Positions 1-62,149 of a DNA stretch of 64,000 nucleotides are shown one piece after another. The notes beneath the pieces were generated by a model, which was not told the DNA's origin, searched no databases, and saw only the letters and a list, made by a program, of their open reading frames with translations. Position 1 is the stretch's first letter, and every line of letters begins with the position of its first letter. Source of the stretch: Poseidonia sp. (GTDB lineage Archaea > Thermoplasmatota > Poseidoniia > Poseidoniales > Poseidoniaceae); NCBI GenBank assembly GCA_965661285.1, contig CBFIDD010000001.1, forward strand, positions 256,001 through 320,000, given 5' to 3'. The translations under genes were made by a program, and so were the position numbers.

Positions 1-2
1 TA

Positions 3-347: not shown

Positions 348-356
348 GGTGAAAAT

Positions 357-1229: not shown

Positions 1230-1231
1230 TG

Positions 1232-25398: not shown

Positions 25399-25502
25399 GT
25401 CTGCGTGGCAATGACCGAGACTCTTGAACCCTCGCGAGACGAGCAAGGTTGGGCTGACCGTTCAACCAATCTTTGATGAGGTTCTCCGGTTTGGTTCGTC
25501 TC

Positions 25503-32035: not shown

Positions 32036-33454
32036 ATGAGCATGCGAGGCCAAGCGGTTTCTCGGGCGTTTTTGCTTGGCTTGTTGATGGTGGTTGCGCC
32101 GCTCTCAGGGTGCATCGGAGAAGGCGAAACCGCCTCGACCGTTGACCTTGATGCAGCCCTCACCATCGACGGTTCGTCTCCGCAAGACGCCCAAGTTCGA
32201 GCAGGCGAATGGCACGATGTGCTTCTCCTGGGCGAGGATCTGCGCCTCTCGGCCCCCGCCCACGATGTGCTCTTGTTTGTTGATGGCGTCATCGACATCG
32301 ACAGTTCTGTCCCTGTAGATGGTGACCGTGTGCTCGTCCAGATGTTGACCACGCCCTACACCGAATTTGTTGAACTGGTCGTGTGGCACAAGGATGGAAC
32401 AAAATCGGTGTTCAACCGCACGGTGAGCAACGGCACCCCCATTCTTGCGGGTGAGGCGTGGTACGAAAAGATGGATTACATCACCTGCGACACACCTTCG
32501 GACGATTGCGGTGCGTACAACGGACGATGGATGGGAAGTCCAAACCCCCAATTCGAACGTGCTGCATCGTATTTCCAAGGCCACTTTGAGGGGCTTGGCT
32601 ATGAGACTCACCTGATGCGTGTGGTCGACCACCTCAACCCGAGTCAGCCTGAATCGCTCAATGTCATTGCGTGGAAGCGTGGCACCTCGGACGATTGCGT
32701 GCAGGGCATGGGCTCGCACATGGACATCGCTCCCCCCGGAGGCCCTCCCGGCGGTGGAACCGCCGAAGGTGCTTACGACAACACCGCCGGCACGGTGGTC
32801 ATGATGCTCTACGCACAGGCACTGGTTGACATTGAAGTGGAGTGCGACACCTTCCTCGGCTTGTGGTCCTCCGAAGAAGAAGGACTACGAGGCTCCAACG
32901 CGTTTGCCAACAACGATTGTGAGGCGTGTTTGCCTCAGGACAAAGAACTCCGATTTTACATCAACATGGACATGATGGGCATCTCATGGCCCGCCCACAA
33001 AGAAAACGGCGACCCCTTCCCCTATCACGCATGGTCCGGCCCCGACATCGACCCAGAAGTGCAGGATGTTGAAATTACCAGCATCGTTGACCACGTGCAT
33101 CGAAACGTGCTCAACGCACCCATGGACCTGCGCATCGACGGGACCTACGGAGCGGGTTGCGACAACCACTGGGAGGAACACAGCGACTTGGTCATGGACG
33201 TGCATGAGGACAGTTTCGGTCGGTCCGACCACGTCACCTTCCGTAACCTTGGCGCACAGACCATTTTCCACCTGGGAGCCTACGACGACGATTACTCGGC
33301 CTACCACTCGCCTCAAGACACGTTGGAAAACATGGTCGCAGTGGTCGGTGGGCAAGAAAACCTCGAGGAAAGTTTGGAATTTGTCATGTGGGCGGCGTTC
33401 CTTGAGTTCATTTTCGCCGACCAAACTCCCGAAATTCGAAACGTCAACGCCTGA
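32036..33454 (+). CDS. M28 family metallopeptidase, lipoprotein-like
   Basis: LSGCIG lipobox-like, SHMD, GAYDNTAG, EEEGLRGS, NMDM, RSDH, YHSPQD; exact start uncertain (32030/32036/32042). Confidence 0.9.
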   Translation: MSMRGQAVSRAFLLGLLMVVAPLSGCIGEGETASTVDLDAALTIDGSSPQDAQVRAGEWHDVLLLGEDLRLSAPAHDVLLFVDGVIDIDSSVPVDGDRVLVQMLTTPYTEFVELVVWHKDGTKSVFNRTVSNGTPILAGEAWYEKMDYITCDTPSDDCGAYNGRWMGSPNPQFERAASYFQGHFEGLGYETHLMRVVDHLNPSQPESLNVIAWKRGTSDDCVQGMGSHMDIAPPGGPPGGGTAEGAYDNTAGTVVMMLYAQALVDIEVECDTFLGLWSSEEEGLRGSNAFANNDCEACLPQDKELRFYINMDMMGISWPAHKENGDPFPYHAWSGPDIDPEVQDVEITSIVDHVHRNVLNAPMDLRIDGTYGAGCDNHWEEHSDLVMDVHEDSFGRSDHVTFRNLGAQTIFHLGAYDDDYSAYHSPQDTLENMVAVVGGQENLEESLEFVMWAAFLEFIFADQTPEIRNVNA

Positions 33455-33498
33455 GGGTTTGAACGAAACTTCTTGTAGAACATAACACAAGTTGCCGT

Positions 33499-35154
33499 GT
33501 GGATGTCTACGGGGCGTCGAGTTCTGATGAGACGGTTTCACCGTCATGGCTTAAGCACCCCGCTTTGGCCATTGGTGTCGGGTTTCTCCTGGCCTTTGGC
33601 GAGATGATCGTCCGTTTGCTCAGTGGTAAGAATACAGTGGACGCCATTTGGCCCCACGCTGTTCGTTCGCTGGAATGGACCATGACACTGCGCAACGCTC
33701 CAACACTGACGCTGACCTTCATGTTCATCGTGGCTGGGGCAGCCTACGCCTTACGAAAAGCCATCACACGGCATGAGCGCCAACCGGGTTGGACGCTGTT
33801 CCCTCTCGCTTGTGTGGGTTTCCTGCTCGGGCTCATCTCGCTTCACGTTCTGATGGATGTCTTCTACCTTCGAGGTGCGTTTCTTCTTCTCCCGACGCTC
33901 ATGGGGTGGACGTTGGCCTGCTTGCTCGTGGGGCTTTGGGGACCTCCGGTCTTGCGCCGTTCGGGCGAATCTAAGGTGGCCCCCGCTCGGGTGGTCCACA
34001 TGCTCGGCGTGTTTTTCGCAGCCTGGCTCGTTATGCCGGGTGTCCCGGCCGTCGTCGGCTTTGCACCCGCACCCCCGGCAACTCCCTCGATGGGCTACGG
34101 CTCCTTCCCCGGACCCTTCACGGTGGAACAATACCGCTCGCCCTACACGCTTCCTGACGAGGTGCTTGCGGTTCAGGGCGATTTGGAGGACGATGTGGAA
34201 TTTAGCGTGTACATCACCCTGCCCAACCTTCCCGAAGACATCACCTTCAGCAGCATGCCGTTGGCGGTTCTCCTCCACGGATTTGGCTATCCTGATGTTG
34301 ACGCCTACCAGGATTGGATCAATCACCTTGCTGGAAAAGGGATGGCGGTCGCCTTCATTCAATACCCCTCCGACCTTCGTCCAGAAGGGCATGAAACGCA
34401 CGAAGCCACCTACGACCAAGGCATGACGGATTACCTGCAACACGTCCAACGAGACCTTGCGATTCGAGCTGCCCTTGACCATCTGGATGCGATTCTGCTT
34501 CAACCAGAGCGAGAACCCCAGCTGGAAGAACACCTCGGTCAGCGCCATGTTGACCCGTCGGTGCTGTGGGCAGGCGGCCACAGCCTGGGTGCTGCTTACA
34601 CATTCATCACGCTCGACGATGTGCTGAAACATGGATGGGGCAGTCGCGCTCTCGTGGTTGCCCTCGAATCGCCTGCACATCGCCCCATGCAGCCTCATCT
34701 CCACCCTGACCTCTCCCAACTTCCCAACGAGACACTGGTCCAAATCGGAATTCCGGAAGACGACATGACCGTGGGTGTCTGCCCCGGAGCGTTCCACCAA
34801 CAACTCTTTTCTTCGCTCCCCGAAGAGCGCAACCAACTTCTCGAAATTCAATCCGACCTCTACGGGTTCCCACGACTGGTCGCTAGCCACTACCTCCAAA
34901 CCGACCCGGCCCACGACACCCTCTCCGATTGGAGTTTTTACCGACGCGTCGACGCCCAAGCGGATTACCTGGTCGCCATGGGGCGAGAAGACACCTTTAC
35001 GGCCGATTGGGCCTATCAGTATCTGACGGACGAAACCATGCTGACCGACATGGGAGCGTGGTCCGACGGCACGCCCGTGTTGCCGCTGATTTGGCACACC
35101 AACGCCATTGAGGAAGTCTCTGCGTTCCAGGACTGCCTTGCGAACACAACTTGA
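33499..35154 (+). CDS. Membrane-anchored alpha/beta hydrolase
   Basis: N-terminal TM helices, LLHGFG, GHSLG nucleophile elbow; start uncertain. Confidence 0.82.
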   Translation: MDVYGASSSDETVSPSWLKHPALAIGVGFLLAFGEMIVRLLSGKNTVDAIWPHAVRSLEWTMTLRNAPTLTLTFMFIVAGAAYALRKAITRHERQPGWTLFPLACVGFLLGLISLHVLMDVFYLRGAFLLLPTLMGWTLACLLVGLWGPPVLRRSGESKVAPARVVHMLGVFFAAWLVMPGVPAVVGFAPAPPATPSMGYGSFPGPFTVEQYRSPYTLPDEVLAVQGDLEDDVEFSVYITLPNLPEDITFSSMPLAVLLHGFGYPDVDAYQDWINHLAGKGMAVAFIQYPSDLRPEGHETHEATYDQGMTDYLQHVQRDLAIRAALDHLDAILLQPEREPQLEEHLGQRHVDPSVLWAGGHSLGAAYTFITLDDVLKHGWGSRALVVALESPAHRPMQPHLHPDLSQLPNETLVQIGIPEDDMTVGVCPGAFHQQLFSSLPEERNQLLEIQSDLYGFPRLVASHYLQTDPAHDTLSDWSFYRRVDAQADYLVAMGREDTFTADWAYQYLTDETMLTDMGAWSDGTPVLPLIWHTNAIEEVSAFQDCLANTT

Positions 35155-35179
35155 AAAGGAATACAAGAGATTTGTAACC

Positions 35180-35605
35180 ATGGCGGAAGCCCATGTTACC
35201 AACGATGTCAAATCGTTGTGGAAGTGGATAGGGGGATCGGCTTTCCTCGCCTCCATGTGTTGCTTCCCAAGCGTCGTTCTCGTCCTCTTTGGGCTTGCCA
35301 GCGTTTCAAGCGCAGCAGCCCTGTCAAACGATTTGTATTGGGGGACCAACGGTATGTGGTGGTTCCGACCGCTTTTGACGGCGCTCAGCGCAGGTCTTGT
35401 CGCCCTCGGCCTGTTCATTTATTTCCGAAACCAAGGCATCTGCTCACTTGACGAGGCAAAACGCCAGCGAAAGCGGATTGTCAACACGTCGTTGGTCGTG
35501 TTCCTGTTGTCAACCATCACGTACATCGTGTTCAATTTCGTCGTGTTGACCGAACTCGGTGTGGCCCTTGACCTGCCGTGGGAGAGCAGCCGATTGTGGA
35601 ATTGA
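35180..35605 (+). CDS. MerT-like small membrane protein
   Basis: ASMCC.P in the first TM, WFRP, further Cys; 3 TM helices. Confidence 0.6.
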   Translation: MAEAHVTNDVKSLWKWIGGSAFLASMCCFPSVVLVLFGLASVSSAAALSNDLYWGTNGMWWFRPLLTALSAGLVALGLFIYFRNQGICSLDEAKRQRKRIVNTSLVVFLLSTITYIVFNFVVLTELGVALDLPWESSRLWN

Positions 35606-35606
35606 T

Positions 35607-36377
35607 TCAGGCACCGCTTCGTTGGGTTTTACACCCAACACCCCAATCCGGCTCGGCCTCCATCGCCCTGCGTGTTTGTTCGAGAAGCACGTCCTCGGGC
35701 GTCGGTGAGGTAGGGGTTGCGGACGTGTACGCCAGCGATAAATGATAACCGCTTTCCGTCCAATATTGCAATTGGATTTTTGATTTTTCAATTGAAATTT
35801 GGTCGGTTTCATTCTCAATTGGAATTTCAATTTCCCGGGGGTTGAGGTGCATCCCTTGGCCCAGACATTTTTGCACCGCTTCCTTCCCCGTCCACAAACG
35901 GAAAACATGCTCCGGTGCTTTGCGAAGGCGCTCGAGTTCGCTGCCTTTGGCCATCATATCGAAGGCGTTCTCTGCGAGGGTTCGGTCAACGGGTTCTGCA
36001 TCAAGTCCCACCCGAAGAGCAGGGGGTGCGAGGGCGACAAACGCCATGCCGTCACTGTGAGAAATCGAAACATTCGGTAGCGGCGTTCGTCTCCAAACAC
36101 CTTGAATGAAATGGATGGAAGGTGCCCTGAACTCGTCCCTTCGTACTTCCAGCACCGAGAGGTCGCCCACGCCCCACCATTCGAGCGCCTCTCCCAAGAG
36201 GCGGCGGCCCGTCAAGTGTTCACAACGACGCTTTCCGGTGACGAACGTCTGAACCTCGCTCGCCTGTGCAAGAGGAACCTCCGCAAGGTTCCAGTCCCGC
36301 ACGGGCATGACAAACACCTCCACCTTTCCATCGGGAGGCGTGAGCCGTTGAATCCCCACGCCAGACCCCTCGCTCAT
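35607..36377 (-). CDS. Sfp-type 4'-phosphopantetheinyl transferase
   Basis: SISHS, VGLDAE, WTGKEAVQKCLGQG; ATGA overlap with the megasynthase stop. Confidence 0.92.
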   Translation of the reverse strand: MSEGSGVGIQRLTPPDGKVEVFVMPVRDWNLAEVPLAQASEVQTFVTGKRRCEHLTGRRLLGEALEWWGVGDLSVLEVRRDEFRAPSIHFIQGVWRRTPLPNVSISHSDGMAFVALAPPALRVGLDAEPVDRTLAENAFDMMAKGSELERLRKAPEHVFRLWTGKEAVQKCLGQGMHLNPREIEIPIENETDQISIEKSKIQLQYWTESGYHLSLAYTSATPTSPTPEDVLLEQTRRAMEAEPDWGVGCKTQRSGA

Positions 36378-39300
36378 CGCTCCAGTGAAAACCGTTGGTT
36401 GTCATCAACCGTAGCCATGGCTTTGAGTTGCAACCCTTTGAGGGCCAACACAGGAGCATCGTCCTCACCGACGATAACAACGTCGTGAACGGTGATGCCA
36501 TCACCCGGGGCGCCAACTTGGAGGCTTCGCAACCGAAGCGTTTCATCAGCATCGGGAACCCTCAGCATGGTCGACCAGGCGATACCCACGGGAAGGCTGC
36601 TGTAGCCAAGCAGTTCCATGGCCACGAGGCCTGCGTTCTGGAAGCCAGCTTCGATCAGCATCGGGAGCGCTTCGAGCAACACCTGCTCACCGTCAGATTC
36701 CAAGGCAAACTGGTCTGTTTCGGGGAGTTGATGTCGCATCAACGCCAGCCCGTCAATACCTTGTCGGCCTTCATCACCAACGCCTCGAAGCACACCTCCG
36801 TGAGATTGGAAGCGTGGGCCGTGGAAGTACCGGTCGTAGATGAAGGAGGCGGGATGGAGCACATCGCCCGATGGAGGTGTGCCCGTTTCGGGTAATTCAT
36901 CGACTTCACCTTGCAAGAACGGCCGCAGGTCTTCGTGCTTCTCGATAAGACGAACAAGCGCCGAGTGGTGTTCTCGCTCGCCGAACACTTCGCCCTTTGA
37001 GTTGGCCAAATCTGACACCAAACGACAACGCACCCATGTAAGGTCGCCTTCGGAGCGTTCGATATTGACCTCAACACGAACCGTCATCGGGCCTTTCAGA
37101 AGTTTGACGGGCAGCCCAAAGCTGACCTCTTCAAAACCAGCTAAACATGTGGTGGGGAGGAGAAGCAGCGAGGATTGGGCAAACATTTCGAGGGCCATCA
37201 CGCCAGGGTGGTAAGGGACGCCCTCAATGGCATGGTCGGTCAAGAAAGGATGGTCCTCCTCCGAAAGGGTGGTCTGGGTGACCATGTGCTGGTGTTCTTC
37301 CAAGGCCACGACCTTGTCGACGAACGGGAACCGTGTGGGGTCAGCGATGGTGGCGGCCATGCTCGGAGGCAACTTCAGCGGTGCTTCTCGGAACGAATCA
37401 AAGCGGTCCATCACGCCCAGCGTACCGCACCCAAGCACCCTGCGTTTTCCACCCTGAAGGGCTTCGGCAACGAAGAGGGCCACGCCGTCCTCAACGGCGA
37501 GCGTCTCAATACCTGCAGCAGCGAAGACCGCTTCAATGGAGCCTCGGGTGGCCATGCCAACATCGCGCCAACCCGTCCAACCGATGGCCACCGCCCTGCA
37601 GGCCGTGGTCGCCGTCAGGCGTGCCATTTCAGCATCCAGGACCGAGTTGGCGGCAGCGTAGTCTGTTTGTCCGCCGTTTCCAAACCGACCGGCCACGCTG
37701 GTGAAACAGCAAGCGAAGTCGGGAACGTCCCGTCCCGAAGCCTGAACGGCCGACATCAAAGCCCGCCAACCGTCAATCTTCACCCGAACAACCCGATCGA
37801 ACACCTCGTAGGCTTTGTCGGCAACGAGCTTTGAGTCTTCCAAACCTGCGCCGTGAACGATTCCGGTGATGGGGCGTCCAAGCGACGCCCCAAGTTGTGC
37901 AAGGCCTTCGTGGTCCATCACGTCGATGGAGTGGTAGGTAGCCTGATTGCCGGTTTGAACGATGGCGTCCAGCGTGAGATAGACATCGCGACTGCGAGTA
38001 AAGCGTTGCCACGCAGTATTCCATTCCACCATGGTGACCTTTCCGGTTTCACTGGCCTCGATGAGGCGCTCACGCAGGGCGTTCTTCTCCTCAGCGAGTT
38101 GGTCTTCGGTCCAGCCAATCCAATCGGCGGTCGATTCGATAAGGGTTGAGCGACCAAGCAACTCGAAGTGCGCTCCGGCCTTTGGACTCGCTTGAGCGAC
38201 GCCGATGATGGACGCAGCCGTCACACCAGAGCCACCGCCGGACACCAACCACGTATCTTCGGCTGTCAACGGTTGGACCTCCTCCACAACGTCCTCTGCG
38301 AAAGCGACCAGCGACCAGCGGCGTCCGTCTCGGTCAAGACCAATCTCGACTTCTCCCGCAAGACCGAGCAGGTCCTTTTCGATGCGCTGTGCAGCATCGT
38401 CGGCCTCCAAAACAAAGTCAGGATGAAGGTCCAGCGCACGACAACGAAGGTCGGGACGCTCGAAGGCATACGACTTCGTGATGCCGCTGGCGGCACATTG
38501 GATCGCATTGAAGCGGTCGCCCTTGTTTCCGTGCCGTCCGTCGAGAGAAGAAACAGAGGCGATAAAGCCGGAGGAATCAGTTGGGATGCTCTGGCCCAAT
38601 TCCTTGAGAAGGCCAAACCAGCCCTGGGCTGCGAGCGCGATTTGAGAGGATGGATAGGTGTCTTCGGACCACTGCTCTGATGCGAGTTTCATCGGCGCCA
38701 TGTGAACCAGGCCTGCAAGGCGAACGCCGGCGAGTTGGGTTGCAATCCAAGCCAAATGCTCGGGTTGTTCGGGGTCGGCTCGGAACACGGTGCGACCGGC
38801 TTCTTCCTGACGAGATGCATCGCGAATGCGGCTCTCAAAGCCAATGCGAACAGCGCTCAAACCTCGCGCCTCCATGCGCTGACAAAAGGCTTCAGCGATG
38901 CCCCAGCCGTCGTCAGACACGACCACCGTGCCTTCGGGATGCAGCGGAGCGGCCACACCCGGACATCCTTCTATTTCCACTTGCCATCGGCGAGGACCCT
39001 CTGCGTGGGTCGAGGACGAGACGGGGGCAGAGATTTCGGCCACCTCATCAGCAACCTCAACCTCAGGTGCCTTTGGCGTCGGGCTTCCGCCCTGCATCTT
39101 CACGATGTAGGCGGTGAAGTGGTTCAGCGTCGGATGGTCTGCGAGCACAAAGTCTTCGTCAACGGGCAGCGAGAAGCGGTCCCTGATTTCGGCCATGATC
39201 TCGGCTTGTTTGACCGTATCAATGCCCAGTTCACCCTCGAGATCCTGGTCCAATTCGATGAAATCCGCTGGGTAGCCTGTGTGGTCGACGACGACCGAAA

Positions 39301-42300
39301 CGAGCACACCTTCGATTTCGGGGTGCGATTGGTTGGCCGCTGTGGAAGGCGATGGTGCGGTGGGCGCAGGCGTCGGGGCGGGCGTTGCGGGGGCTGGTGC
39401 TGGAGGAGTGGCTCTAGTCGCTGTTTGAGCGGCAGCACCGCCCTGCATGCGCTGGATGTAGCCAATCATGTGATTCAGTGTCGGGTGGTCGGCCAGGACG
39501 AAGTCCTCGTCAACGGGCAGACTGAATTTGTCGCGAATATCAGCCATGATTTCGGCTTGCTTGACGGTATCAATACCCAATTCGCCCTCGAGGTCCTGGT
39601 CGAGTTCAATGAAATCAGCGGGGTAGCCCGTGTGATCAACGACCACGGCGACGACCGTGGCGGTCATCTCGGCATCGTCAAGCGGAGCGGCAGGAGCAGA
39701 AGCTGCGGGGGCTGATGCTGGAGCTTGAGCCGAAACGGGTTCGGGGACGGCCAGTGCAGCGACTTCTGCGGGGGTTGATGGTGCGGGCTCGCCACTCGTC
39801 ATGCGTTGAATGTAGCCGATCATATGGTTGAGGGTGGGGTAGTCGGCGAGCACGAAATCCTCGTCGATGGGGAGTCCAAACCTGTCGCGTATGTCAGCCA
39901 TAATTTCGGCTTGCTTCACCGTATCAATGCCCAATTCGCCCTCAAGGTCTTGGTCGAGTTCAACAAAGTCAGCCGGATATCCGGTGTGGTTGACCACCAC
40001 GTCGATCACGGTGGCGACCATGTTCTCGTCGTTCACGACAGTTGGGGCAGCAGCGGGTACAGCGGGTGCAGCGGGTGCTGCAGGAGCGAGCGAGGATTCC
40101 ACCGGCGCGGCCGTTGGTGCTGGTTCCGGCTTCGGGGAAGGCTGCATTGGTTGAGGGGTGGACACTGAGGGCTTGCCCTCCCACGGTGCTGTGTACGGCC
40201 ATGGCTCGCCTTGGATGCCACCGTGGAGGTTGTTCTCTCCGTCGACATATGCCACGAGTTTGTTCTGGAGAACCCGCATGACCACATCGTCCGTGCCCGC
40301 AAGTCCTCTGGCCCAAGCGAGTAAGCGAGCACCGTCGATACGCTCGCCTTCCACTGGCCATCTTCGCATCAACGACAAAGCGATTTGTGAACCAAAGCCA
40401 GCTGCAAAGCGCAAACCGTATTCCAATTCGGGATAGTCGCCTCCGGTGGAAAGGTTGAGGTCGCCCAATTCAGGGTCCTTTTCCTTGTGGTTGGCGATGG
40501 GGGGAATGCGTCGTGTCTTCAGGCCGTAGAACATGCTGGCATCTTCGATACCAACCGCCATCGGATGGCCGGTGAAGCCTTTCGTATTGGCAATCACCAA
40601 TTTGTTGGTCGATTCACCAAAGGTGTCGCGCAGCGCCTTGACCTCGGATTGGGCCGAACCGCCACGGGCCGGCGTGTAGGTTTCGTGGGAGAAGAAGACC
40701 GTGTTCGGGGCCATGGCGTGTCGGTCAAGCCCCCAGCGTCGCTCCATATCGGTGATGAAGCTGTTGACCACCTGGCCCACGTGCTCCACATCCAAGCGCG
40801 TGCCGTGGTAGGCAGAATTGGCGGTGGTGGAACCGAGGAACTCAGCGATGGGTTGCACGCCACGCTGTTGGGCCTCTGAGTTGCGCTCCACGACAAAGGC
40901 GGCTGCACCCATGCCCAAAATGAGCCCGTTTCGACGGCGATCAAAGGGCAGGGCGGTTTCTTCGACGACGTTGTTGGTCGCTGCGGCACCCGAGGCGGCA
41001 AAGCCGCCAGCGATCCACTCCCAAAGGTCGTCGCCCGTCACATCGTCACCGCTGATGATGACCACGCGGTCAACCCGGCCGGCGTCAAGCCAGTCCTCTG
41101 CAACACCAAAAGCAGCGGTTGCTGAGGCACATGCGAGGTTGATGGTGGTGTTTGGTCCTCGAATACCGGTGTATTGTGCGAACTGAGAATGGCCCATGTT
41201 CAGCGTTTGGAACAGGTAGCGTCGGTCGAACCGACCCTCACCGTCATCGCCGTTGGTCTTGGCGTGTTTGGACGCCATCTGAAGGCCGGGGAAACAGGAT
41301 GAGAAGACGATGCCCGTGCGCTCTCGTTGGATTTGAGGCACCTGCCAGTTGCGAATCAGGCGGAGTCCACCCTTTCCGATTTGTTCAACCGGCGTCAGCG
41401 GAATACCTGCGTCTCGCAGCGCCAGCAAACCAGCAGCCACCGCCAGTTGGGTACTGATATCCCACGCCACGATGGCTTTCGGGTCAATACCAAATTCTTC
41501 GGCGAGGTCAAAGGCACCCTTCAGCCCTGCAAGCTGAGGGATGTCACCAAACACGGTGGCTTGGTCCATGTTGACCGAGCCATCTCTGCCCTTGATGAGG
41601 CGAACGATGTTTTTGTCCAAGAGACGCTGCTTGTATTCGTCCGAAACTTCGCTGATGCAGGTCTCGCCTCGAACCAGTTTCTCAAAGGCGTCTTCCGAGA
41701 AGACCCGGTCCATACCGGGCAAACCGAGCGAAACACCGGTGACCACGTACGGGTCAGCATCCCGCCTCGTGCCCTGTTGAAGCATCGAGACGGTGGAGAC
41801 CGGCGCCACCTTGAGATTGGAGGGGGCTGAAACCGAGGTCATCGGCGACCAGGAGGAGGGCGGTGTGCGAACCCAGCGAGCGAGGTCTCCAGCCGTTTGG
41901 GCGGCGGTCCCATCAAACTCAGGGTCGATTTCTGCCTCCGAAGCGATGGTGGCCACGACCCGTTGGACTTCGTCGGCGGTGAGGCCCAAACCCGCTGTGA
42001 GCGATACCTGGCCGTGACAAAAGGAGGCAGGATAGCCGCTGTGAGCCGCGATTCGGTCGCCGACATAGGCCCTGATGGCGCGGTCGAGTGCAAACTGTGA
42101 ATCCATCGGGCCGGTATGGACGGTCGCTGCTGGTGCGACTGGGGTCGGGCTTGCCCCACTTCCAGGCAACGGTCGTGCCCGGGTGCGCAGGGATTCCTGT
42201 GCGGCACTGGAGGATGAGGAGGAGAGAGGAGCAGCCTGGCGGGCTTCAAGCGGTCCCGCCTTGAAAGCGTCCTGGAGCGCATCCGAATCAAGCGAAGGCC

Positions 42301-45205
42301 AAGATGGAGGGCGACCGGCGAGCGCCAAGGCACCAAGAGCCGTCATGAAACTCGCAATACCGCCCTGTTTTGGATGGTTGGTCATGATGGGCACGTGAGG
42401 CTGACCCTCGAGGATTTGCATAGCAAACATGGTCAACGCACGCTTTGGACCGACCTCAACAAACAAGCGTCCGCCGGCAGCGTACATGGTTTCGATCTGC
42501 TTGGTCCATTCTACCGAGGAAGCCATTTGCGGAGCGAGTTTCTCCAAAATGGCCGTCTTGGCGTCGTCGCCTTTGTCGGGATAGAACGTGCCGTCGACAT
42601 TGGCGGTGATGGGGACCTCAGGCCAGCGGATTTCCAAGCCCTCCAAGAACCGGCGAAGCGGTTCGTTTGCTGGGGCTACGATTCGAGAGTGGAAGGCGTG
42701 TGAGGTCGCCAAGGCAACGCAGGAGAACCCTTGCGCCTCAAACATCTCCATGGCGGCCTTGACGGGTTCGGTTTCTCCGGCAATGACCGTCATCTTGGGC
42801 GAGTTTTTGTTGGCCGCGATCACATACCCCTCGGTCGCTTCAAGCACCGCCTCGACCGCCTCATAGGGCGCGGTTACGCTGGCCATCAAGCCCTTGTCGT
42901 CGATTTCAACGGCGCCCATTTCCGTTCCGCGCGCTGCGGCGGCGCGCAGTGCTCCGTCCATATCCAAAATACCAGAGGACATGAGGGCGGCGTATTCACC
43001 CAACGAGTGGCCTGCGACCATGTCAGGTGAGTGCCCGTAGGTTTGGAGAGTCCGCTCAATCGCCAAGTCGGCGGTGAGCATCGCAGGTTGCGTGTATTCG
43101 GTCTGCTTGAGTTTGTGCTCTGCTTCTTTCAATTCATCCTTAGAGAGCGCCGAGCGCAAGACAAATCCTGAGAGGGTCTCGCCTCCCAGCACCTCAACCA
43201 TCGTTTCATCGGCCTGTTCCCAAACGGCTGCGGGGGCCGTGAAGCGTTGCACCAAATCGGCGGTCATCCCGACGTATTGACTCCCCTGCCCGGGGTACAT
43301 GTGAACGGTTTTTGCCTCGGCCGGCATGGCAGGCTGGTCGGTCAGCAACACACCTTGTGCCTGCAAGAAGCCCCACTTCTCGGCGTCCATCATGGCCTGG
43401 CTCGCCAGGGTTTGTCGCTTCGCAAATTCGGCCCAAGACGTCGCCACGAGTGCCATGCGAACCGCTTGATTGGAATCAAAGGCCGAACTCGCGGTTTGCA
43501 GCGCCTCAGAGAGTCGGCGACCCTTCGGGTCGTCATCGAACAAGGGGGCGTCAAACGAGACCTGAGTCAGCTGTGCATGAAGCGCCTCAAGGGAGTCATC
43601 GGAGAGCAGCAACACGCCGCCTTCAACGGCTTTGAGCGCCTCGTGCGACATGGTTGCAGGAATGGACGGGTCAAAAATCGAGGGAGCACTGACCTCCGCT
43701 TGCCCGCTGTAGGCCGTCCAACGGGCGTCCCAATCCGAAGCCAACGGCACGTGATAGTCGGGCTCATAGCCCTCGAGAGCGATGTGGAAGTTCGTGCCAC
43801 CAAAGCCGAACGCCGAAACACCTGCACGTCGAGGATGGCCTTCGGGCCGTGGCCATTCAAGCGGTGCCGTGGGAACAAAGAAGGGAATGTTGGACCAGTC
43901 CACCGTTGGATTGGGCGTCTCGAAATTCGCACTCGGAGGGATGGTTCGGTGGTGCAAAGCCATGACCGATTTCATAATGCCCGCAATGCCAGCAGCTGCC
44001 TTGAGGTGCCCAATTTGGGATTTGATGGAGCCAACGGCGACGTTGCCGCTCCCCTCAACGCCCGTCCACAACCTGGAGAGCGTGGAAAGTTCGGTTGCAT
44101 CACCAACCTTGGTCGACGTCCCGTGAGCTTCCACCAGTTCAACCGTCGATGCAGGGTAGCCTGCTTGGCTGTACGCTCGGGCAATGGCCTGAATTTGACC
44201 TCGCTGGCTCGGGGCCGTGATGCCTTTTCCTCGGCCATCAGAAGAGCCCCCAACCCCGCGTATCACGCTGTAGATTTCATCATCATCCCGAATGGCATCG
44301 CTCAGCCGCTTCAGCACCAGAACACCTGCACCCTCACCCATGACGAAGCCGTTGGCTCGGGCGTCAAAAGGCGACGAGTGGGAGGGCGAAAGGGCGCCGA
44401 TAGCCGAGAACTTCGCAAAGGTTGCAGGGTCCATGGTTCGGTCGGTTGCCCCTGCGAGCATGACGTCCACCTGGCGTGTTTGAAGCAGGCGACACGCATC
44501 GAGAACTGCAGCCATCGAGGAGGCGCATGCGGCGTCCATGGCGTGATTGGGCCCTTGCAAATCCAGCAGATTCGCGACACGTCCCGAAACCACGTTGGCC
44601 AGTTCACCGGGCATGGTGTCTTCATCCACCCGAGGCGTGCCCTCAAGAATCGCTTCGGCAAACTCGTCTGCTTTTCCTTCGGGCAGACCGTGTTGCTTCG
44701 CCACGTTCGTTGTGTGGTTGGACCACACGCGAATGTTCGACAAGTTGCGGTTTTCTCCACCAAGCGCATTGGCGAAGACGACCCCGGTTTTTGTTCGGTC
44801 AATGTCGCGTGAGTCCCCATCATAACCAGCGTGCTCGATGGCGTCTGCGGAAACGGAAACGGCCCACAACTGACACGGATCGATTTGCGGCAATGTTCCG
44901 GGTGGTTGACGCCACCTGCGCCAGTCAAACTCAGCATCGGAGACCAATGCGCCAATCTTGGCGTAGGTGTACCCTTCGGTGTGTTGCCCGGGGCCGCCCT
45001 CTTTCCAGAAATGGTTGATTGGACCGGGCCAACGCCCCTCTGGAAGCGGTCGGATGCTCACTTTGGCGTCGAGAATGTTTTGCCAAAACGCATTGATATC
45101 CGGCGCATCTGGCATGAGGGCGCCAAGACCGATGACGGCAATCGGCTCGAAGGGCCCCTGCTCGATCCCCTCGCATGGTTTGCCGTCTGCTGTCGTCAAC
45201 GTCAT
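36374..45205 (-). CDS. Type I PKS/FAS megasynthase (PfaA-related): KS-AT-pseudoACP-KS-ACP-ACP-ACP-KR-DH
   Basis: KS1 DAACASS/EAHGTST/GHLK; AT GQGSQ/GHSLG/HAFH; KS2 NLACAS/SHET/KGFTGH; three LGIDTVKQ ACPs; KR GGGSGV/YAAAN; DH H-x3-G-x4-P (DHAIEGVPYHP). Confidence 0.95.
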   Translation of the reverse strand: MTLTTADGKPCEGIEQGPFEPIAVIGLGALMPDAPDINAFWQNILDAKVSIRPLPEGRWPGPINHFWKEGGPGQHTEGYTYAKIGALVSDAEFDWRRWRQPPGTLPQIDPCQLWAVSVSADAIEHAGYDGDSRDIDRTKTGVVFANALGGENRNLSNIRVWSNHTTNVAKQHGLPEGKADEFAEAILEGTPRVDEDTMPGELANVVSGRVANLLDLQGPNHAMDAACASSMAAVLDACRLLQTRQVDVMLAGATDRTMDPATFAKFSAIGALSPSHSSPFDARANGFVMGEGAGVLVLKRLSDAIRDDDEIYSVIRGVGGSSDGRGKGITAPSQRGQIQAIARAYSQAGYPASTVELVEAHGTSTKVGDATELSTLSRLWTGVEGSGNVAVGSIKSQIGHLKAAAGIAGIMKSVMALHHRTIPPSANFETPNPTVDWSNIPFFVPTAPLEWPRPEGHPRRAGVSAFGFGGTNFHIALEGYEPDYHVPLASDWDARWTAYSGQAEVSAPSIFDPSIPATMSHEALKAVEGGVLLLSDDSLEALHAQLTQVSFDAPLFDDDPKGRRLSEALQTASSAFDSNQAVRMALVATSWAEFAKRQTLASQAMMDAEKWGFLQAQGVLLTDQPAMPAEAKTVHMYPGQGSQYVGMTADLVQRFTAPAAVWEQADETMVEVLGGETLSGFVLRSALSKDELKEAEHKLKQTEYTQPAMLTADLAIERTLQTYGHSPDMVAGHSLGEYAALMSSGILDMDGALRAAAARGTEMGAVEIDDKGLMASVTAPYEAVEAVLEATEGYVIAANKNSPKMTVIAGETEPVKAAMEMFEAQGFSCVALATSHAFHSRIVAPANEPLRRFLEGLEIRWPEVPITANVDGTFYPDKGDDAKTAILEKLAPQMASSVEWTKQIETMYAAGGRLFVEVGPKRALTMFAMQILEGQPHVPIMTNHPKQGGIASFMTALGALALAGRPPSWPSLDSDALQDAFKAGPLEARQAAPLSSSSSSAAQESLRTRARPLPGSGASPTPVAPAATVHTGPMDSQFALDRAIRAYVGDRIAAHSGYPASFCHGQVSLTAGLGLTADEVQRVVATIASEAEIDPEFDGTAAQTAGDLARWVRTPPSSWSPMTSVSAPSNLKVAPVSTVSMLQQGTRRDADPYVVTGVSLGLPGMDRVFSEDAFEKLVRGETCISEVSDEYKQRLLDKNIVRLIKGRDGSVNMDQATVFGDIPQLAGLKGAFDLAEEFGIDPKAIVAWDISTQLAVAAGLLALRDAGIPLTPVEQIGKGGLRLIRNWQVPQIQRERTGIVFSSCFPGLQMASKHAKTNGDDGEGRFDRRYLFQTLNMGHSQFAQYTGIRGPNTTINLACASATAAFGVAEDWLDAGRVDRVVIISGDDVTGDDLWEWIAGGFAASGAAATNNVVEETALPFDRRRNGLILGMGAAAFVVERNSEAQQRGVQPIAEFLGSTTANSAYHGTRLDVEHVGQVVNSFITDMERRWGLDRHAMAPNTVFFSHETYTPARGGSAQSEVKALRDTFGESTNKLVIANTKGFTGHPMAVGIEDASMFYGLKTRRIPPIANHKEKDPELGDLNLSTGGDYPELEYGLRFAAGFGSQIALSLMRRWPVEGERIDGARLLAWARGLAGTDDVVMRVLQNKLVAYVDGENNLHGGIQGEPWPYTAPWEGKPSVSTPQPMQPSPKPEPAPTAAPVESSLAPAAPAAPAVPAAAPTVVNDENMVATVIDVVVNHTGYPADFVELDQDLEGELGIDTVKQAEIMADIRDRFGLPIDEDFVLADYPTLNHMIGYIQRMTSGEPAPSTPAEVAALAVPEPVSAQAPASAPAASAPAAPLDDAEMTATVVAVVVDHTGYPADFIELDQDLEGELGIDTVKQAEIMADIRDKFSLPVDEDFVLADHPTLNHMIGYIQRMQGGAAAQTATRATPPAPAPATPAPTPAPTAPSPSTAANQSHPEIEGVLVSVVVDHTGYPADFIELDQDLEGELGIDTVKQAEIMAEIRDRFSLPVDEDFVLADHPTLNHFTAYIVKMQGGSPTPKAPEVEVADEVAEISAPVSSSTHAEGPRRWQVEIEGCPGVAAPLHPEGTVVVSDDGWGIAEAFCQRMEARGLSAVRIGFESRIRDASRQEEAGRTVFRADPEQPEHLAWIATQLAGVRLAGLVHMAPMKLASEQWSEDTYPSSQIALAAQGWFGLLKELGQSIPTDSSGFIASVSSLDGRHGNKGDRFNAIQCAASGITKSYAFERPDLRCRALDLHPDFVLEADDAAQRIEKDLLGLAGEVEIGLDRDGRRWSLVAFAEDVVEEVQPLTAEDTWLVSGGGSGVTAASIIGVAQASPKAGAHFELLGRSTLIESTADWIGWTEDQLAEEKNALRERLIEASETGKVTMVEWNTAWQRFTRSRDVYLTLDAIVQTGNQATYHSIDVMDHEGLAQLGASLGRPITGIVHGAGLEDSKLVADKAYEVFDRVVRVKIDGWRALMSAVQASGRDVPDFACCFTSVAGRFGNGGQTDYAAANSVLDAEMARLTATTACRAVAIGWTGWRDVGMATRGSIEAVFAAAGIETLAVEDGVALFVAEALQGGKRRVLGCGTLGVMDRFDSFREAPLKLPPSMAATIADPTRFPFVDKVVALEEHQHMVTQTTLSEEDHPFLTDHAIEGVPYHPGVMALEMFAQSSLLLLPTTCLAGFEEVSFGLPVKLLKGPMTVRVEVNIERSEGDLTWVRCRLVSDLANSKGEVFGEREHHSALVRLIEKHEDLRPFLQGEVDELPETGTPPSGDVLHPASFIYDRYFHGPRFQSHGGVLRGVGDEGRQGIDGLALMRHQLPETDQFALESDGEQVLLEALPMLIEAGFQNAGLVAMELLGYSSLPVGIAWSTMLRVPDADETLRLRSLQVGAPGDGITVHDVVIVGEDDAPVLALKGLQLKAMATVDDNQRFSLER
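39095..40025 (-). repeat. Three tandem near-identical ACP domains separated by Pro/Ala linkers
   Basis: HTGYPADFxELDQDLEGELGIDTVKQAEIM...DEDFVLADxPTLNH occurs three times. Confidence 0.92.
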
Positions 45206-45214
45206 GTGAACACC

Positions 45215-46006
45215 TCAATTCATGATGCTTTCCGGCACCATCGTGATGGAATAGCCCGCATCAACGTAAACGCATTGACCTGTGACGCCCGCTGAGAGTG
45301 GACTGGCAAGCCACAAGGTTGCACCGGCCACATCGGCCTGACTGACGTTTCTTCGGAGCGGTGCGTTCGCTTCAACGTGATCTAAAATTCGGTCAAATCC
45401 AGGTATGCCGCTGGCAGCGATGGTCCGTATGGGCCCGGAGGAAATGGCATTGACACGATGACCCTCTGGCCCGAGATGGCAGGCGAGTTCACGTGTCCAG
45501 CACTCCAAAGCCGCTTTTGCCATGGACATGATGCCGTAACTGGGAACGAATCGATTGGAAGCCGCATACGTCAGTGTGATGGTTGAGGAACCGGGATTGA
45601 GGTAGGGGAGGGCGTGCTTGAGGCAGCGCTGAAGCGAATTCGCCGAGATGGTCATGGCGGTGTTGATGTCGTCGTCTTCAACAAAAAGAATGGGCCGGTC
45701 AAAACACGAGCGAGGCGCAAACCCGATGGCGTGGACCAAGATGTCCGCCTTCTTACCGGGGTGGTCTGCGGCAAAGGCGGTGAAAAATTCCTGCGTGGTG
45801 CTGTCCGAAGCGACGTCGAGCGGATAGAAACCACCGATGGCGGGAAGTTCGTCCTTGAGTTTGAACACACGACTCATGAATCGCTTCTGGTACCCCAGAT
45901 AGAGCGTGACCCCAGCCGCTGCCAATTGCTTGCAAATCGCCCATGCAATGGAGTCTTCGCTTGCCACTCCAAACACAAAGGCCGTTTTTCCTTCCAGTCC
46001 AAGCAT
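45215..46006 (-). CDS. fabI: Enoyl-ACP reductase (NADH), FabI type
   Basis: GVASEDSIAW, HAIGFAP, YGIMSMAK, NAISSGPIRT, YVDAG; GAGGAGG SD. Confidence 0.92.
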   Translation of the reverse strand: MLGLEGKTAFVFGVASEDSIAWAICKQLAAAGVTLYLGYQKRFMSRVFKLKDELPAIGGFYPLDVASDSTTQEFFTAFAADHPGKKADILVHAIGFAPRSCFDRPILFVEDDDINTAMTISANSLQRCLKHALPYLNPGSSTITLTYAASNRFVPSYGIMSMAKAALECWTRELACHLGPEGHRVNAISSGPIRTIAASGIPGFDRILDHVEANAPLRRNVSQADVAGATLWLASPLSAGVTGQCVYVDAGYSITMVPESIMN

Positions 46007-46123
46007 GAAAATCCTCCTCGGGGATTAGGTGTAGTGCGCTACACCAAGCCTTTGAGTGTTACCTCTCAAATCGTGCCACATCGGCCGAGTTCAAGACCGT
46101 AGAAGGAGCGCCAAAACGCAAGG

Positions 46124-47221
46124 TCAAAGGTCGGCGAAAACGTCGTCAAATTCGTCTTCTTCGTCCTCAGGGAACAAATCGTCCAGATCGGAGAGGTCCA
46201 AATCATCCAAGTCGTCATCCTCTGGCTCGTCCTCCACATCAACGGGAGGCACATACATCGGTTGAGCGTTGGCTCGTCGACGAATAGTTCGAGCCAAAGC
46301 CACAACAAAGATCAGGCCGAAAAGAACGGCAGCCCCGATGCTCCCGTACATCACGAGGGTGTCTTTGTCAACCTCTTCCAAGCCGCCGCCAAGTCCGCCA
46401 GCCGTGTTGCTGACCTCGAGTTGAATGGAGATGCTGGTCTCGCTCACGGGGGCTTCGCCATCGTTCTCACTTTCGGCTTGGAAAATAACCTGGAGCCGTT
46501 CCTCAGCGGCCACTTCCGAGGGCGCCCTGATGGTCAATTCGCGCACCGTTGAAACGCCGCCTTCGGTGACGTCTTCAGCCACGAACGTGCCGCTAGGGAA
46601 GGTGAAACCAGCCTGCTCAAGTTCGGCGGCATTGGTGATGGAAACACGAATCTTATCGTCGTCGTTACCGTTGTTTTGGAATTGGAACGTGATGGCGACT
46701 TCATCGCCCTGAGCCATGGTTCGTGTGCTCTTGTCAGAAATGTCAAGGTCCACCATACCAAAGGTCGCTACGTTGAGGTCGCCGTTCACCGTTGCGTTTG
46801 ACGAGAGCCCTTCCGGCCAGTCAAGCATCCCGACATTGGTGACCGTAGCGGTCAAGGTGAATTCGTAGGAGACCTCGGCTGAAAGGCGGGTTTGACCGTT
46901 GAAGGTGACTTTGAAATCTTCTTCTTCATCAGGACCGAGGTCAAAGGAATCCTCCTCCAACATCATGTCGACTTCAAGACCGTCCCACTCCTTTTCGACA
47001 GCGATGGTTTCTTGGAACGAGGAGGGGTTCCTGACGGTGCAGGTGATCTCCACCACGGGTTCACTGAGCGGATGAACATCGAGTTCGGGCTGTTTTTCGT
47101 CGCAGTCGATCTCAACGCCGGGCGCCGTGGGAGCTTGAGCTTGGACAGAGCCTGCGAGACTGCACAGCAAGAGCGCCACCACAACCCATCCAAAGCGGCG
47201 TGAAGCTAGCATGGCCCTCAT
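46124..47221 (-). CDS. Secreted Ig-like surface protein with C-terminal TM
   Basis: Signal peptide after ATG 47221; NNGNDDD motif; TM helix and acidic tail. Confidence 0.75.
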   Translation of the reverse strand: MRAMLASRRFGWVVVALLLCSLAGSVQAQAPTAPGVEIDCDEKQPELDVHPLSEPVVEITCTVRNPSSFQETIAVEKEWDGLEVDMMLEEDSFDLGPDEEEDFKVTFNGQTRLSAEVSYEFTLTATVTNVGMLDWPEGLSSNATVNGDLNVATFGMVDLDISDKSTRTMAQGDEVAITFQFQNNGNDDDKIRVSITNAAELEQAGFTFPSGTFVAEDVTEGGVSTVRELTIRAPSEVAAEERLQVIFQAESENDGEAPVSETSISIQLEVSNTAGGLGGGLEEVDKDTLVMYGSIGAAVLFGLIFVVALARTIRRRANAQPMYVPPVDVEDEPEDDDLDDLDLSDLDDLFPEDEEDEFDDVFADL

Positions 47222-47291
47222 GGTCCCCTGTGGTTTCTCTTTCATCAATGTGATGGGGTGTTGTCGGCAAAAATATGCGTTCATAAACACC

Positions 47292-48161
47292 TCATTCTTC
47301 TCCGTAGACAACGGCCGGCAGGACGCTGTGCGTGTTCCACATGACGTCTTCGTCAACGCCTGCAGCCAGCAATTGTTGGGTCCGTTTCGGCACGGTTTTG
47401 GGGCCCAGCACGGCACCGGGACGACGAGGGTCATCCATGTAATCGGTTTCGAGGAAAAACCCGTTTTTCGCCATGCGATGGGTTTCAACCAACCGTTCCA
47501 AAGCGCCTTTTCCGCACAACACGCTGGGCGTGAGGCCGTGGGTGTGTTCAGCACGAACATCGGGGGGAGAATAATGGCGCACCAGTTTTCTCAAATCCAT
47601 CCCTTGACGAAGCGCTCGACGAGACAAATCGCCGTAGGTGTCCTCTCGCTCGCCTTCCACGTGAAGTTGAAGTGGCAATCCCTCTTGAGCAGCAAGGTGC
47701 ATCGTTTCATCGAGAAGTTGGTTTGAAAGGTCCCAAATTTCGTCCGAAACAGGCCAATGAGGTCGCCCCACCTCGCCGATGGCGTGAGCCTGCCCCTCGT
47801 GGACAAACCCAAGGGCGGCTTCAATGGAATGGCGGTAATTCTCAATCGCACGCTCCTTTCCAGCATCCCCTTCGTTGGAGACCCAGCGCTCGAATTGATG
47901 GGCGAAGGCCGCAGGATGCGGGCCGAGAACGACACGTACGCCAAGGCCAACGTCCTCTCGTACCGACGCCGCCATCCGAATCGTGTCGGCGTAGGCGTTG
48001 CGATGGCCTTCAAAGGTCTCGGGAGGTGCGGAAAAATCAGGGCAGTGAACGAGCACGAGGTCGGTTCCGCCCACGCGCTGAAAAGAGCGTGCTGCATCAA
48101 GGAACAATCCCTTTCGGTTGAGGTGAAAGTGGTTGTCCAAAATCGGACCGTCATAGACCAT
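47292..48161 (-). CDS. TatD family hydrolase (archaeal type)
   Basis: DNHFH, GPHP, IGEVGRPH, QLH, ETDYMDDPRRPGAVLGPKTVP. Confidence 0.9.
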   Translation of the reverse strand: MVYDGPILDNHFHLNRKGLFLDAARSFQRVGGTDLVLVHCPDFSAPPETFEGHRNAYADTIRMAASVREDVGLGVRVVLGPHPAAFAHQFERWVSNEGDAGKERAIENYRHSIEAALGFVHEGQAHAIGEVGRPHWPVSDEIWDLSNQLLDETMHLAAQEGLPLQLHVEGEREDTYGDLSRRALRQGMDLRKLVRHYSPPDVRAEHTHGLTPSVLCGKGALERLVETHRMAKNGFFLETDYMDDPRRPGAVLGPKTVPKRTQQLLAAGVDEDVMWNTHSVLPAVVYGEE

Positions 48162-48170
48162 GGAGTTCCC

Positions 48171-48713
48171 TCAAATTCGGTCGACGAAATAGCCGTTATC
48201 GCTGAACACGCCGTTCCAGTAGACCGCCGCCATGGCCACCATGTTCGGATGACGGGCATCCGCCACGATGCACTTGCCGTTGGGCCAAATCTGAACGGTC
48301 AAGCTGTGTCGGGTGTCGGTCAACGTGGTGCAGCCGAGGCGAGCGTCAAACTCGGCGGCCCCTGAGGGCAGGCTGGCTGGAATGGCCTCCAAATTGAGGG
48401 CTCGGTCGAACTGAAACGACACGACGACGGGGCCCATCTCCGCAACAAGACCGCTGTCGTCCATGCCCATGCGGAGCAGGAGTTCCTTGGCAGCAGCACG
48501 AGCGGCTTCTACACGGTGCGTACCGTGGACAACAATCCTGCCTTCCTCATCGATCACGAGGGTGGCGCGAGGGCGTTCCATGGCTTTGATGACCACGCCG
48601 CTGTTGCGCTGGCCGCCGACTTCAGCGATGACGGTGTCGTGGTTGAGGGGAACAGGGCAGACAAAGCGAACGAGTTGGTTCTCCACGCGAACGTCGATGG
48701 AACCTGTGGCCAT
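48171..48713 (-). CDS. Divergent TATA-binding-protein-like protein
   Basis: 180 aa, two repeats: VEN...PRATLVIDEEGRIVVHG and LNLEAI...VQIWPNGKCIV. Confidence 0.65.
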   Translation of the reverse strand: MATGSIDVRVENQLVRFVCPVPLNHDTVIAEVGGQRNSGVVIKAMERPRATLVIDEEGRIVVHGTHRVEAARAAAKELLLRMGMDDSGLVAEMGPVVVSFQFDRALNLEAIPASLPSGAAEFDARLGCTTLTDTRHSLTVQIWPNGKCIVADARHPNMVAMAAVYWNGVFSDNGYFVDRI

Positions 48714-48714
48714 A

Positions 48715-49518: not shown

Positions 49519-49527
49519 GAAGGTGCC

Positions 49528-55470: not shown

Positions 55471-55601
55471 GGTGTCACCTGCACCTGTGCGAAGGTTTGC
55501 CCCCATAAAATCTCGTCGCTTTCCCGATACCGTACCGTATTCCTCTTCCTTTGCTTACTGTTGTGAACATGAGTTATGAGGGTGGACCTTGTGGAACGAG
55601 C

Positions 55602-60977: not shown

Positions 60978-61063
60978 GGACACCCGTCGGCCGACGCAAT
61001 CTATGAGCAAAGCGGTCCGACGGTGAGAATTTTACCCGACGCCGAGCGGAGACCCCCCGCCCT

Positions 61064-62071: not shown

Positions 62072-62149
62072 GCCAGCGACATGGCCCTTCGGGTTTTGAG
62101 GGCTTGGTGCACATGTGCACGAGAAAACGCGCTTGGTGAGCGCTCCTGA

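Follow-up and report, generated by a model that had tools for sequence, protein, structure and literature searches.

Can a planktonic archaeon make fatty acids on carrier proteins? The question is raised by a three-gene operon of Poseidonia sp. that lies in a 64-kb window, the whole stretch of DNA analysed here (positions 256001-320000 of contig CBFIDD010000001.1, assembly GCA_965661285.1; all positions below are those of this window). The operon encodes a FabI-like enoyl reductase (P0001), a megasynthase (P0002, to which residue numbers refer unless stated) and a 4'-phosphopantetheinyl transferase (PPTase; P0003). We read it as an iterative, malonyl-fed type I synthase of the fatty-acid/polyketide type, a PfaA-like member of the Type R family, which would make largely or fully reduced long acyl chains. 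We put the probability of this reading at about 0.7. Poseidoniales are the Marine Group II archaea (MGII), which count among the most abundant planktonic archaea; none is in culture, and it is not known which lipids make up their membranes.

Genes, domains and catalytic residues

The three genes share the minus strand and are closely coupled (Table 1), as an earlier note on this DNA had described. The TGA stop codon of the fabI-like gene is followed by nine nucleotides, GGTGTTCAC, and then by the ATG of the megasynthase; a GAGGTG at 45211-45216 overlaps this stop codon. Downstream, the megasynthase stop and the PPTase start share an ATGA, and at the head of the operon a GAGGAGG sits 5 nt upstream of the fabI-like ATG. 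The three genes were adjacent and co-oriented in 16/16 Poseidoniales loci.

Scanning the three proteins against Pfam, we obtained E-values far beyond chance. The megasynthase matched ketoacyl-synt (4.6e-69, two stretches), Ketoacyl-synt_C (1.6e-40), Acyl_transf_1 (4.4e-37), PP-binding (1.2e-26, three stretches), KR (4.1e-23) and PKS_DH_N (2.1e-09). It begins with a ketosynthase (KS1) and an acyltransferase (AT), continues through a linker to a second ketosynthase (KS2) and three acyl carrier protein (ACP) domains, and ends with a ketoreductase (KR) and a dehydratase (DH). Strict motif patterns on 32 diverse sequences gave many false "missing" calls, and we therefore read the conservation of catalytic residues from the alignment columns of 45 diverse family members instead. 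Cys227, His361 and His400 of KS1 are all kept in 45/45 members, as is Ser734 of the AT. The two AT motifs that the earlier note had named, GHSLG and HAFH, are found at residues 732 and 836. HAFH is the malonyl-selective AT motif; in its first column 33 members have H, 11 have A and one has G, and the AFH that follows is shared by 45/45. Among 119 full-length close homologs, the catalytic motifs searched were present in 119/119, bar a few misses of the strict patterns. In the window protein, the KR and DH motifs are likewise intact (Table 1).

The second ketosynthase had been overlooked in the earlier note, together with its intact Cys-His-His triad. KS2 is divergent and FabF-like (E 1e-25 in the alignment with FabF 2gqd; E 3e-40 for NCBIfam fabF), and its Cys1359, His1507, Lys1542 and His1547 are each invariant in 45/45 members. 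This invariance suggests that KS2 is an active second ketosynthase and not a chain-length factor (CLF).

The other two proteins supply partner activities. P0001 matches adh_short_C2 in Pfam ("enoyl-ACP reductase", E 3e-69, 233.6 bits) and has an intact catalytic Tyr157-x6-Lys164, with YGIMSMAK at its residue 157; its best NCBIfam matches are all FabI equivalogs. P0003 qualifies as a predicted Sfp-type PPTase by its ACPS domain (PF01648, E 2.2e-10, 41 bits against a cutoff of 25) and by both motifs of that class, GLDAE at its residue 124 (GxDxE) and WTGKEAVQK at 162 (WxxKEAxxK). The 4PPT_N match is weak (18.4 bits versus 27). Jointly, the genes give KS, AT, carriers, KR, DH, a trans-acting FabI-like enoyl reductase (ER) and a PPTase, and on this inventory the earlier note was right.

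How might these parts work together? The PPTase would put phosphopantetheine on a threonine in each tandem carrier domain, three in all, and the AT would load malonyl units from malonyl-CoA. KS1 and KS2 may split priming and elongation between them, probably at different chain lengths. KR and DH would act in cis, the separately encoded FabI-like reductase would saturate the enoyl intermediate in trans, and reduced long acyl chains would grow on the enzyme. Release would be encoded outside the operon, most likely with one of three PlsC-type acyltransferases in the genome transferring the chain directly, or else through hydrolysis by an unlinked thioesterase. This scheme, from the modified threonine and the division of labour between the ketosynthases to product, release and cellular role, is what the sequence suggests.

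Threonine at the carrier site

The earlier note had called the system ACP-dependent. Three PP-binding domains are present, but threonine replaces the pantetheinylated serine in all three, and the term therefore hinges on a predicted modification of threonine, a residue that the note had not remarked on. All three repeats read LGIDTVKQAEI. Their threonine aligns with the pantetheinylated serine of the solved ACPs PigH and AcpM, and the conserved serine of the PP-binding domain is thus missing from 3/3 repeats of the window.

We checked whether this feature extends beyond the window. GIDTVK occurs in every repeat of 121 close sequences (the window protein and 120 homologs), which carry three repeats in 106 cases, four in 14 and two in 1. 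Among 417 long family sequences, 400 have at least one matching repeat. The carrier position in their 1460 repeats is T in 1433, S in 26 and G in 1, counts that are not independent, as many of the sequences are close kin. Viewed by protein, 391 of the 400 are all-Thr, 5 are all-Ser and 3 mix the two residues. One Poseidoniales genus (locus L029) has serine in both repeats, and one protein from another Thermoplasmatota family reads S-T-T-T. A position limited to two hydroxyl residues that are interchangeable within one protein is the pattern expected of an attachment site. When six PPTases from Poseidoniales were aligned (25-50% identity), with the Ser-type genus represented by one of them, no informative Thr-versus-Ser pattern emerged.

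The genome itself adds to this picture. It is 93% complete, and "not found" there does not equal absent. Its sole PF00550 matches are the three carrier domains of the megasynthase, and the operon PPTase is its only PF01648 match. Within this genome, carriers and PPTase thus form a closed pair.

Could threonine instead mean that the carriers are dead, and that what remains is a relic, decaying or repurposed, without ACP-dependent chemistry? The replacement in 3/3 repeats would fit such a relic. The S36T variant of E. coli ACP is not known to be modified by AcpS, and we know of no characterised precedent for the pantetheinylation of threonine. However, megasynthase frames of about 2900 amino acids persist without stops in 134/201 genomes of the order at 48-98% identity, with catalytic residues invariant in 45/45 aligned members. 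The PPTase is adjacent or fused at the examined loci, and the carrier position is held to Thr or Ser, mixed proteins included. We consider a relic very improbable, and the reading of a working synthase with threonine-type carriers is kept below.

Carrier-like elements also occur elsewhere in the family. Extra Thr-type carrier domains lie before KS1 or between KS1 and AT in L033, L040 and L042 (loci of other Thermoplasmatota) and in P0258. In many bacterial members KS2 is directly preceded by a G[IL]DALR motif, perhaps a degenerate linker that resembles a carrier.

Host, relatives and likely product

The closest characterised relatives of the synthase are bacterial, which raises the possibility of a bacterial operon misbinned or misassembled into an archaeal contig. 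The surroundings speak strongly against it. Archaeal marker genes for TBP, about 2 kb from the operon, and Nop56/58 lie in the window, and TBP and a neighbouring gene are syntenic with the operon in 16/16 Poseidoniales loci, including one in a genome that is a single contig of 2.06 Mb. An independent run yielded contigs that span 33000-39923 and 41229-49550. GC content is 0.592 in the operon versus 0.579 in the window, and the genome (1.98 Mb in 8 contigs, 93.2% complete) has 0.08% contamination. The best 120 full-length homologs of the megasynthase are 69-98% identical and lie on contigs of up to 2.04 Mb; those with names are mostly Poseidonia sp., Poseidoniaceae or Poseidoniales, plus one Euryarchaeota archaeon and one generic JGI label. 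NCBI taxonomy places Poseidoniales, with the families Poseidoniaceae and Thalassarchaeaceae, within Thermoplasmatota. Misbinning or misassembly of bacterial DNA is scarcely credible, and the archaeal host and the sound contig that the earlier note had assumed both hold up.

We also surveyed the distribution across Poseidoniales genomes, a check the earlier note had proposed. Among 201 sampled genomes of the order, the megasynthase is found in 134: 98/99 of the window's own family, 2/2 of a second family and 33/99 of the sister family, where presence follows genera. A FabI ortholog occurs in 130/201, and by genus its presence agrees with that of the megasynthase in 23/24 genera; in the one that disagrees (g19), the megasynthase shows up as one weak match (E 4.2e-30) and FabI is not found. 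Genera with neither gene have smaller genomes, of 1.2-1.7 Mb. At the phylum level, querying a sample of 301 Thermoplasmatota genomes with a KS2-ACP piece, we find matches in 105. Other matching families include f10 (9/9), f19 (23/24), f28 (5/6) and f29 (10/10); there was no match in f4, of the same class (0/8), f6 (0/36) or f16 (0/35).

Other Thermoplasmatota families keep the core order KS1-AT-KS2-ACPn-KR-DH and differ in how the partners are attached. The PPTase is fused C-terminally in 5/5 C-terminal extensions tested, and occurs also in a split second open reading frame (ORF). An ER of the PfaD/NMO type is fused N-terminally in 2/4 N-terminal extensions tested, is weak in the third and is absent from the fourth. 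FabI adjoins the megasynthase in only 1/13 loci of these families. Some of their loci are flanked by genes for a carboxyltransferase, a biotin carboxylase and BioY, or for a 2-oxoacid:ferredoxin oxidoreductase. These fusions and flanking genes suggest that ER and PPTase were recruited repeatedly by different genetic routes, and that malonyl-CoA supply is sometimes linked. For a neighbour cluster recurring at five loci, the two members tested matched no Pfam family; the cluster overlaps other genes in part and may be spurious.

Relatives reach well into Bacteria. Scanning 1.84 billion representatives with the KS2-ACP piece by HMMER, we obtained 1129 proteins at E <= 1e-30, and the best 150 of these are mostly 2000-4000 amino acids long, with KS2 followed by Thr-type repeats. 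Named relatives belong to Chloroflexota (Chloroploca, Oscillochloris, Kouleothrix, Roseiflexus, Caldilineaceae, Anaerolineae), Myxococcota, Actinomycetota, Leptospiraceae and Acidobacteriota (labelled Acidobacteriia); ESM Atlas returned generic KS/PP-binding clusters only. We built a FastTree phylogeny of KS1-to-KS2 pieces (45 rows, 10 of them without a taxon label; midpoint root; bacterial rows chosen as neighbours of one query). Poseidoniales are monophyletic in it (support 100), and 16 bacterial-labelled rows, 15 named by taxon and one just "bacterium", group in a single clade (support 100) that lies among lineages of Thermoplasmatota. Given the choice of rows, the unlabelled rows and the lack of an outgroup, we infer no direction of transfer. 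One further member, P0156, is a protein of 3234 amino acids with Ser-type carriers and a fused PPTase, encoded on a 158-kb contig and labelled in NCBI as from a Heimdallarchaeota metagenome-assembled genome. We draw no conclusion from this Asgard label, as a 694-residue piece of the protein matched only two loci of bacteria, Bradymonadales (44-46% identity), among GTDB representatives.

What does the synthase make? Besides its three carrier domains, the genome gave no other carrier protein, no ketosynthase beyond two thiolases (its only other PF00109 matches) and no match to FabA/FabZ (PF07977), so any de novo acyl chain would come from the megasynthase. The failure to find a FabA-type dehydratase/isomerase argues against cis-polyunsaturated products. 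The genome encodes three carboxyltransferases and three PlsC-type acyltransferases, and a biotin carboxylase gene lies in the window. It has GGGPS and a GpsA-type glycerol-3-phosphate (G3P) dehydrogenase; the glycerol-1-phosphate (G1P) dehydrogenase family was not found. This agrees with Rinke 2018 (PMC6461757), where the text available to us gives G3P dehydrogenase as present in MGII genomes and the enzyme for the G1P backbone as lacking.

The product could instead be a specialised secondary lipid (very-long-chain, hydroxylated, partly unsaturated, or a hydrocarbon or glycolipid precursor), made with FabI acting in only some cycles. The tandem ACPs and the closest similarity to PfaA would suit such a lipid, and so would a fatty-acid-hydroxylase-family gene and a flavoprotein reductase gene about 15 kb away. 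The bacterial members sit in Chloroflexota, Myxococcota, Actinomycetota and Acidobacteriota, which normally have type II fatty acid synthase. To judge from these taxa, the megasynthase coexists there with a type II system, which suggests that its ancestral role was a secondary lipid and not bulk fatty acids. In Poseidoniales, the synthase was lost in streamlined genera; within the sister family, several genera with small genomes gave no match to it, and it would be dispensable there. PlsC-type acyltransferases (PF01553) occur in 201/201 genomes of the order, those without the synthase included, and thus give no co-occurrence signal that ties the product to PlsC. The family was also defined as a "secondary lipid synthase", with product unknown, in the part of PMC3098273 available to us. 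On the other side stand the missing alternatives for carrier, ketosynthase and FabA/Z in the genome, the repeated recruitment of an ER (FabI in some cases, a fused NMO domain in others), and the acetyl-CoA carboxylase genes that flank the synthase in other families, as expected for a high-flux primary pathway. A specialised lipid is in our view unlikely, though by no means negligible. Since we found no further machinery for acyl chains, we rank bulk fatty acid destined for ester lipids somewhat above it as the candidate product in these archaea.

Besides the bacterial taxa, the gene losses, the universal PlsC and the two points on threonine modification given above, a few more results weigh against a malonyl-fed synthase of reduced long chains. 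The FabI-like protein scores 220.2 bits where the equivalog cutoff is 391, and the megasynthase scores 868.6 bits against TIGR02813, under its cutoff of 1010.1. PlsX and PlsY were not found in the genome, and a look-up of sequencing runs listed no RNA run that contains this stretch. No thioesterase or other release domain was found in the operon by Pfam, and acetyl-CoA carboxylase genes lie elsewhere; "self-contained", as the earlier note had it, is too strong.

A further step would join two claims: that phosphopantetheine is linked to threonine family-wide by the cognate PPTase, and that the megasynthase is the primary de novo fatty-acid synthase of MGII and of many Thermoplasmatota. We offer this pair tentatively, and the odds lean against both holding together. 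If true, phosphopantetheine on threonine would be a new post-translational linkage, installed by a fused or adjacent PPTase. The megasynthase would then feed PlsC-type acyltransferases in cells with G3P dehydrogenase and no detectable G1P dehydrogenase, and archaea that rank among the most abundant in the ocean would assemble acyl-ester or mixed membranes through a carrier-protein pathway that Archaea are believed to lack. The locus is relevant to how the membranes of Archaea and Bacteria diverged. It is a compact, cloneable three-gene unit with carriers, PPTase and every predicted elongation activity, which makes the archaeal fatty-acid question directly testable, and it is found almost throughout one MGII family and often in other Thermoplasmatota. 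The near-invariant carrier threonine is a separate biochemical puzzle, and generic PPTases may not activate these enzymes.

Several neighbours in the window deserve mention in their own right. The biotin carboxylase gene, the fatty-acid-hydroxylase-family gene (best NCBIfam match OlsE) and a gene for a CysJ-like NADPH flavoprotein reductase are adjacent on the minus strand (59637-63400), and this trio, which lies about 14-17 kb from the operon, may form a module for lipid modification. Directly upstream of fabI lies a gene for a "choice-of-anchor T" family protein (NF041740, E 6.4e-34), syntenic within the genus and probably an unrelated surface protein. An 897-residue ORF has a partial CD36 match (PF01130, E 7.6e-15, residues 56-173); CD36 proteins are known as eukaryotic lipid and scavenger receptors, and the match is odd for an archaeon said to consume fatty acids. 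Two giant ORFs encode a subtilase (Peptidase_S8, E 3.2e-40) and a protein without a Pfam family. A tRNA-like ARAGORN call of undetermined anticodon lies inside a 512-residue ORF, does not reach the Rfam gathering score and is probably false. The first 2 kb of the window are low in GC (0.466 versus about 0.58) and, with a C-5 cytosine DNA methylase, may belong to a restriction-modification or mobile island.

Table 1. Features of the operon and of the rest of the 64-kb window (aa, amino acids).
Feature	Positions	Strand	Details
fabI-like enoyl reductase gene (P0001)	45215-46006	minus	263-aa ORF
Spacer, fabI-like stop to megasynthase ATG	45206-45214	minus	9 nt, read in the sequence
Megasynthase gene (P0002)	36374-45205	minus	2943 aa; KS1-AT-linker-KS2-ACPx3-KR-DH
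KS1	43673-45148	minus	residues 20-511; Cys227, His361, His400
Acyltransferase (AT)	42407-43306	minus	residues 634-933; GHSLG at 732 with Ser734; HAFH 836-839
KS2, divergent FabF-like ketosynthase	40226-41755	minus	residues ~1151-1660; Cys1359, His1507, Lys1542, His1547
Three tandem carrier (ACP) domains	39071-40033	minus	residues 1725-2045; PP-binding x3
Carrier Thr codons	39920-39922, 39566-39568, 39215-39217	minus	ACG, ACC, ACG
Ketoreductase (KR)	37406-38263	minus	residues about 2315-2600; GGGSGVT at 2323; YAAAN with Tyr2516
PKS-type dehydratase (DH)	36377-37327	minus	residues 2627-2943; PKS_DH_N; HxxxGxxxxP with His2658; YFHGPRF at 2793
Sfp-type 4'-phosphopantetheinyl transferase gene (P0003)	35607-36377	minus	256 aa
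TBP gene	48171-48713		archaeal marker
Nop56/58 gene	15569-16663		archaeal marker
Biotin carboxylase gene	59637-61010	minus	
Fatty-acid-hydroxylase-family gene	61064-62071	minus	
CysJ-like NADPH flavoprotein reductase gene	62150-63400	minus	
Choice-of-anchor T family gene	46124-47560	minus	
ORF with partial CD36 match	8998-11691	plus	897 aa
Giant ORF, subtilase	25473-31094	plus	1873 aa
Giant ORF, no Pfam family	49528-55506	minus	1992 aa
tRNA-like call, probably false	57805-57897	minus	93 nt
C-5 cytosine DNA methylase	1232-2386		
Possible restriction-modification or mobile island	1-2400		

Comparison with known systems

The megasynthase resembles PfaA in its best NCBIfam match (TIGR02813), in the order KS-AT followed by tandem ACPs, KR and DH, and in the need for a dedicated Sfp-type PPTase. 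It differs by the extra ketosynthase between AT and ACPs and by threonine in place of serine on the carriers, and the ER of the window is a short-chain dehydrogenase of the FabI type. As the earlier note had observed, PfaB, PfaC and PfaD are not here: none of their domains was found among the operon neighbours, and PF07977 was not found genome-wide; PF03060 was not searched there.

Iterative polyketide synthases (PKS) of the enediyne PKSE type have the architecture KS-AT-ACP-KR-DH-PPTase. The PPTase fused C-terminally after DH in other Thermoplasmatota members recalls this arrangement. By architecture alone, the enediyne enzymes differ: they have a single ACP and lack both a second KS and an ER partner.

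The ACP-independent fatty acid synthase complex of Sulfolobus acidocaldarius (bioRxiv 10.1101/2024.07.05.601840) has likewise been proposed as an archaeal route for de novo fatty acids. It works on CoA thioesters with a thiolase/DUF35 complex and separate SDR, MaoC and MDR proteins, whereas the window encodes a carrier-domain megasynthase with its own PPTase.

Whether relatives had already been reported was a question that the earlier note had left, and the answer is yes. An antiSMASH survey lists T1PKS/HglE-KS clusters in Poseidoniaceae, without analysis in the text available (PMC10434046, retracted). PKS clusters are also listed in Thermoplasmatota, with PKS transcripts from four Thermoplasmatota metagenome-assembled genomes and no further analysis (PMC9902471). 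Searching the full-text literature, we found no description of this megasynthase in Archaea, nor any of a Thr-type carrier domain; supplements (e.g. that of Rinke 2018) may list the genes.

The closest known system is the bacterial "Type R secondary lipid synthase" of Roseiflexus, Koribacter, Solibacter and Elusimicrobium (Shulse & Allen 2011, PMC3098273). In the part of that paper available to us, Type R has one pfaA homolog, ordered KS-MAT-CLF-ACP(3-6)-KR, then a PPTase gene, with an acetyl-CoA carboxylase gene between the two in one case. The window likewise has a single pfaA homolog, ordered KS1-AT-KS2-ACPx3-KR(-DH), and the PPTase gene follows it immediately. Its protein is collinear with that of a Roseiflexus sp., at 42% identity over KS-AT and 48% over KS2, and the Roseiflexus protein has four GVDTVK carrier repeats. 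In contrast to the Type R scheme as described there, the "CLF" position of the window protein keeps the catalytic Cys, as a second KS would, a DH is recognisable after KR, the operon has recruited a fabI-like gene and the host is archaeal; the words "archaea" and "threonine" each occur 0 times in the text of PMC3098273. We assign the locus to the Type R family as a predicted archaeal member, matching the founding strains through the paper's description and the proteins through Roseiflexus sp. In summary, the synthase family is known from bacterial Type R; what is new is its archaeal host range and breadth, the recruited FabI, a probably active second KS and the family-wide threonine at the carrier site.

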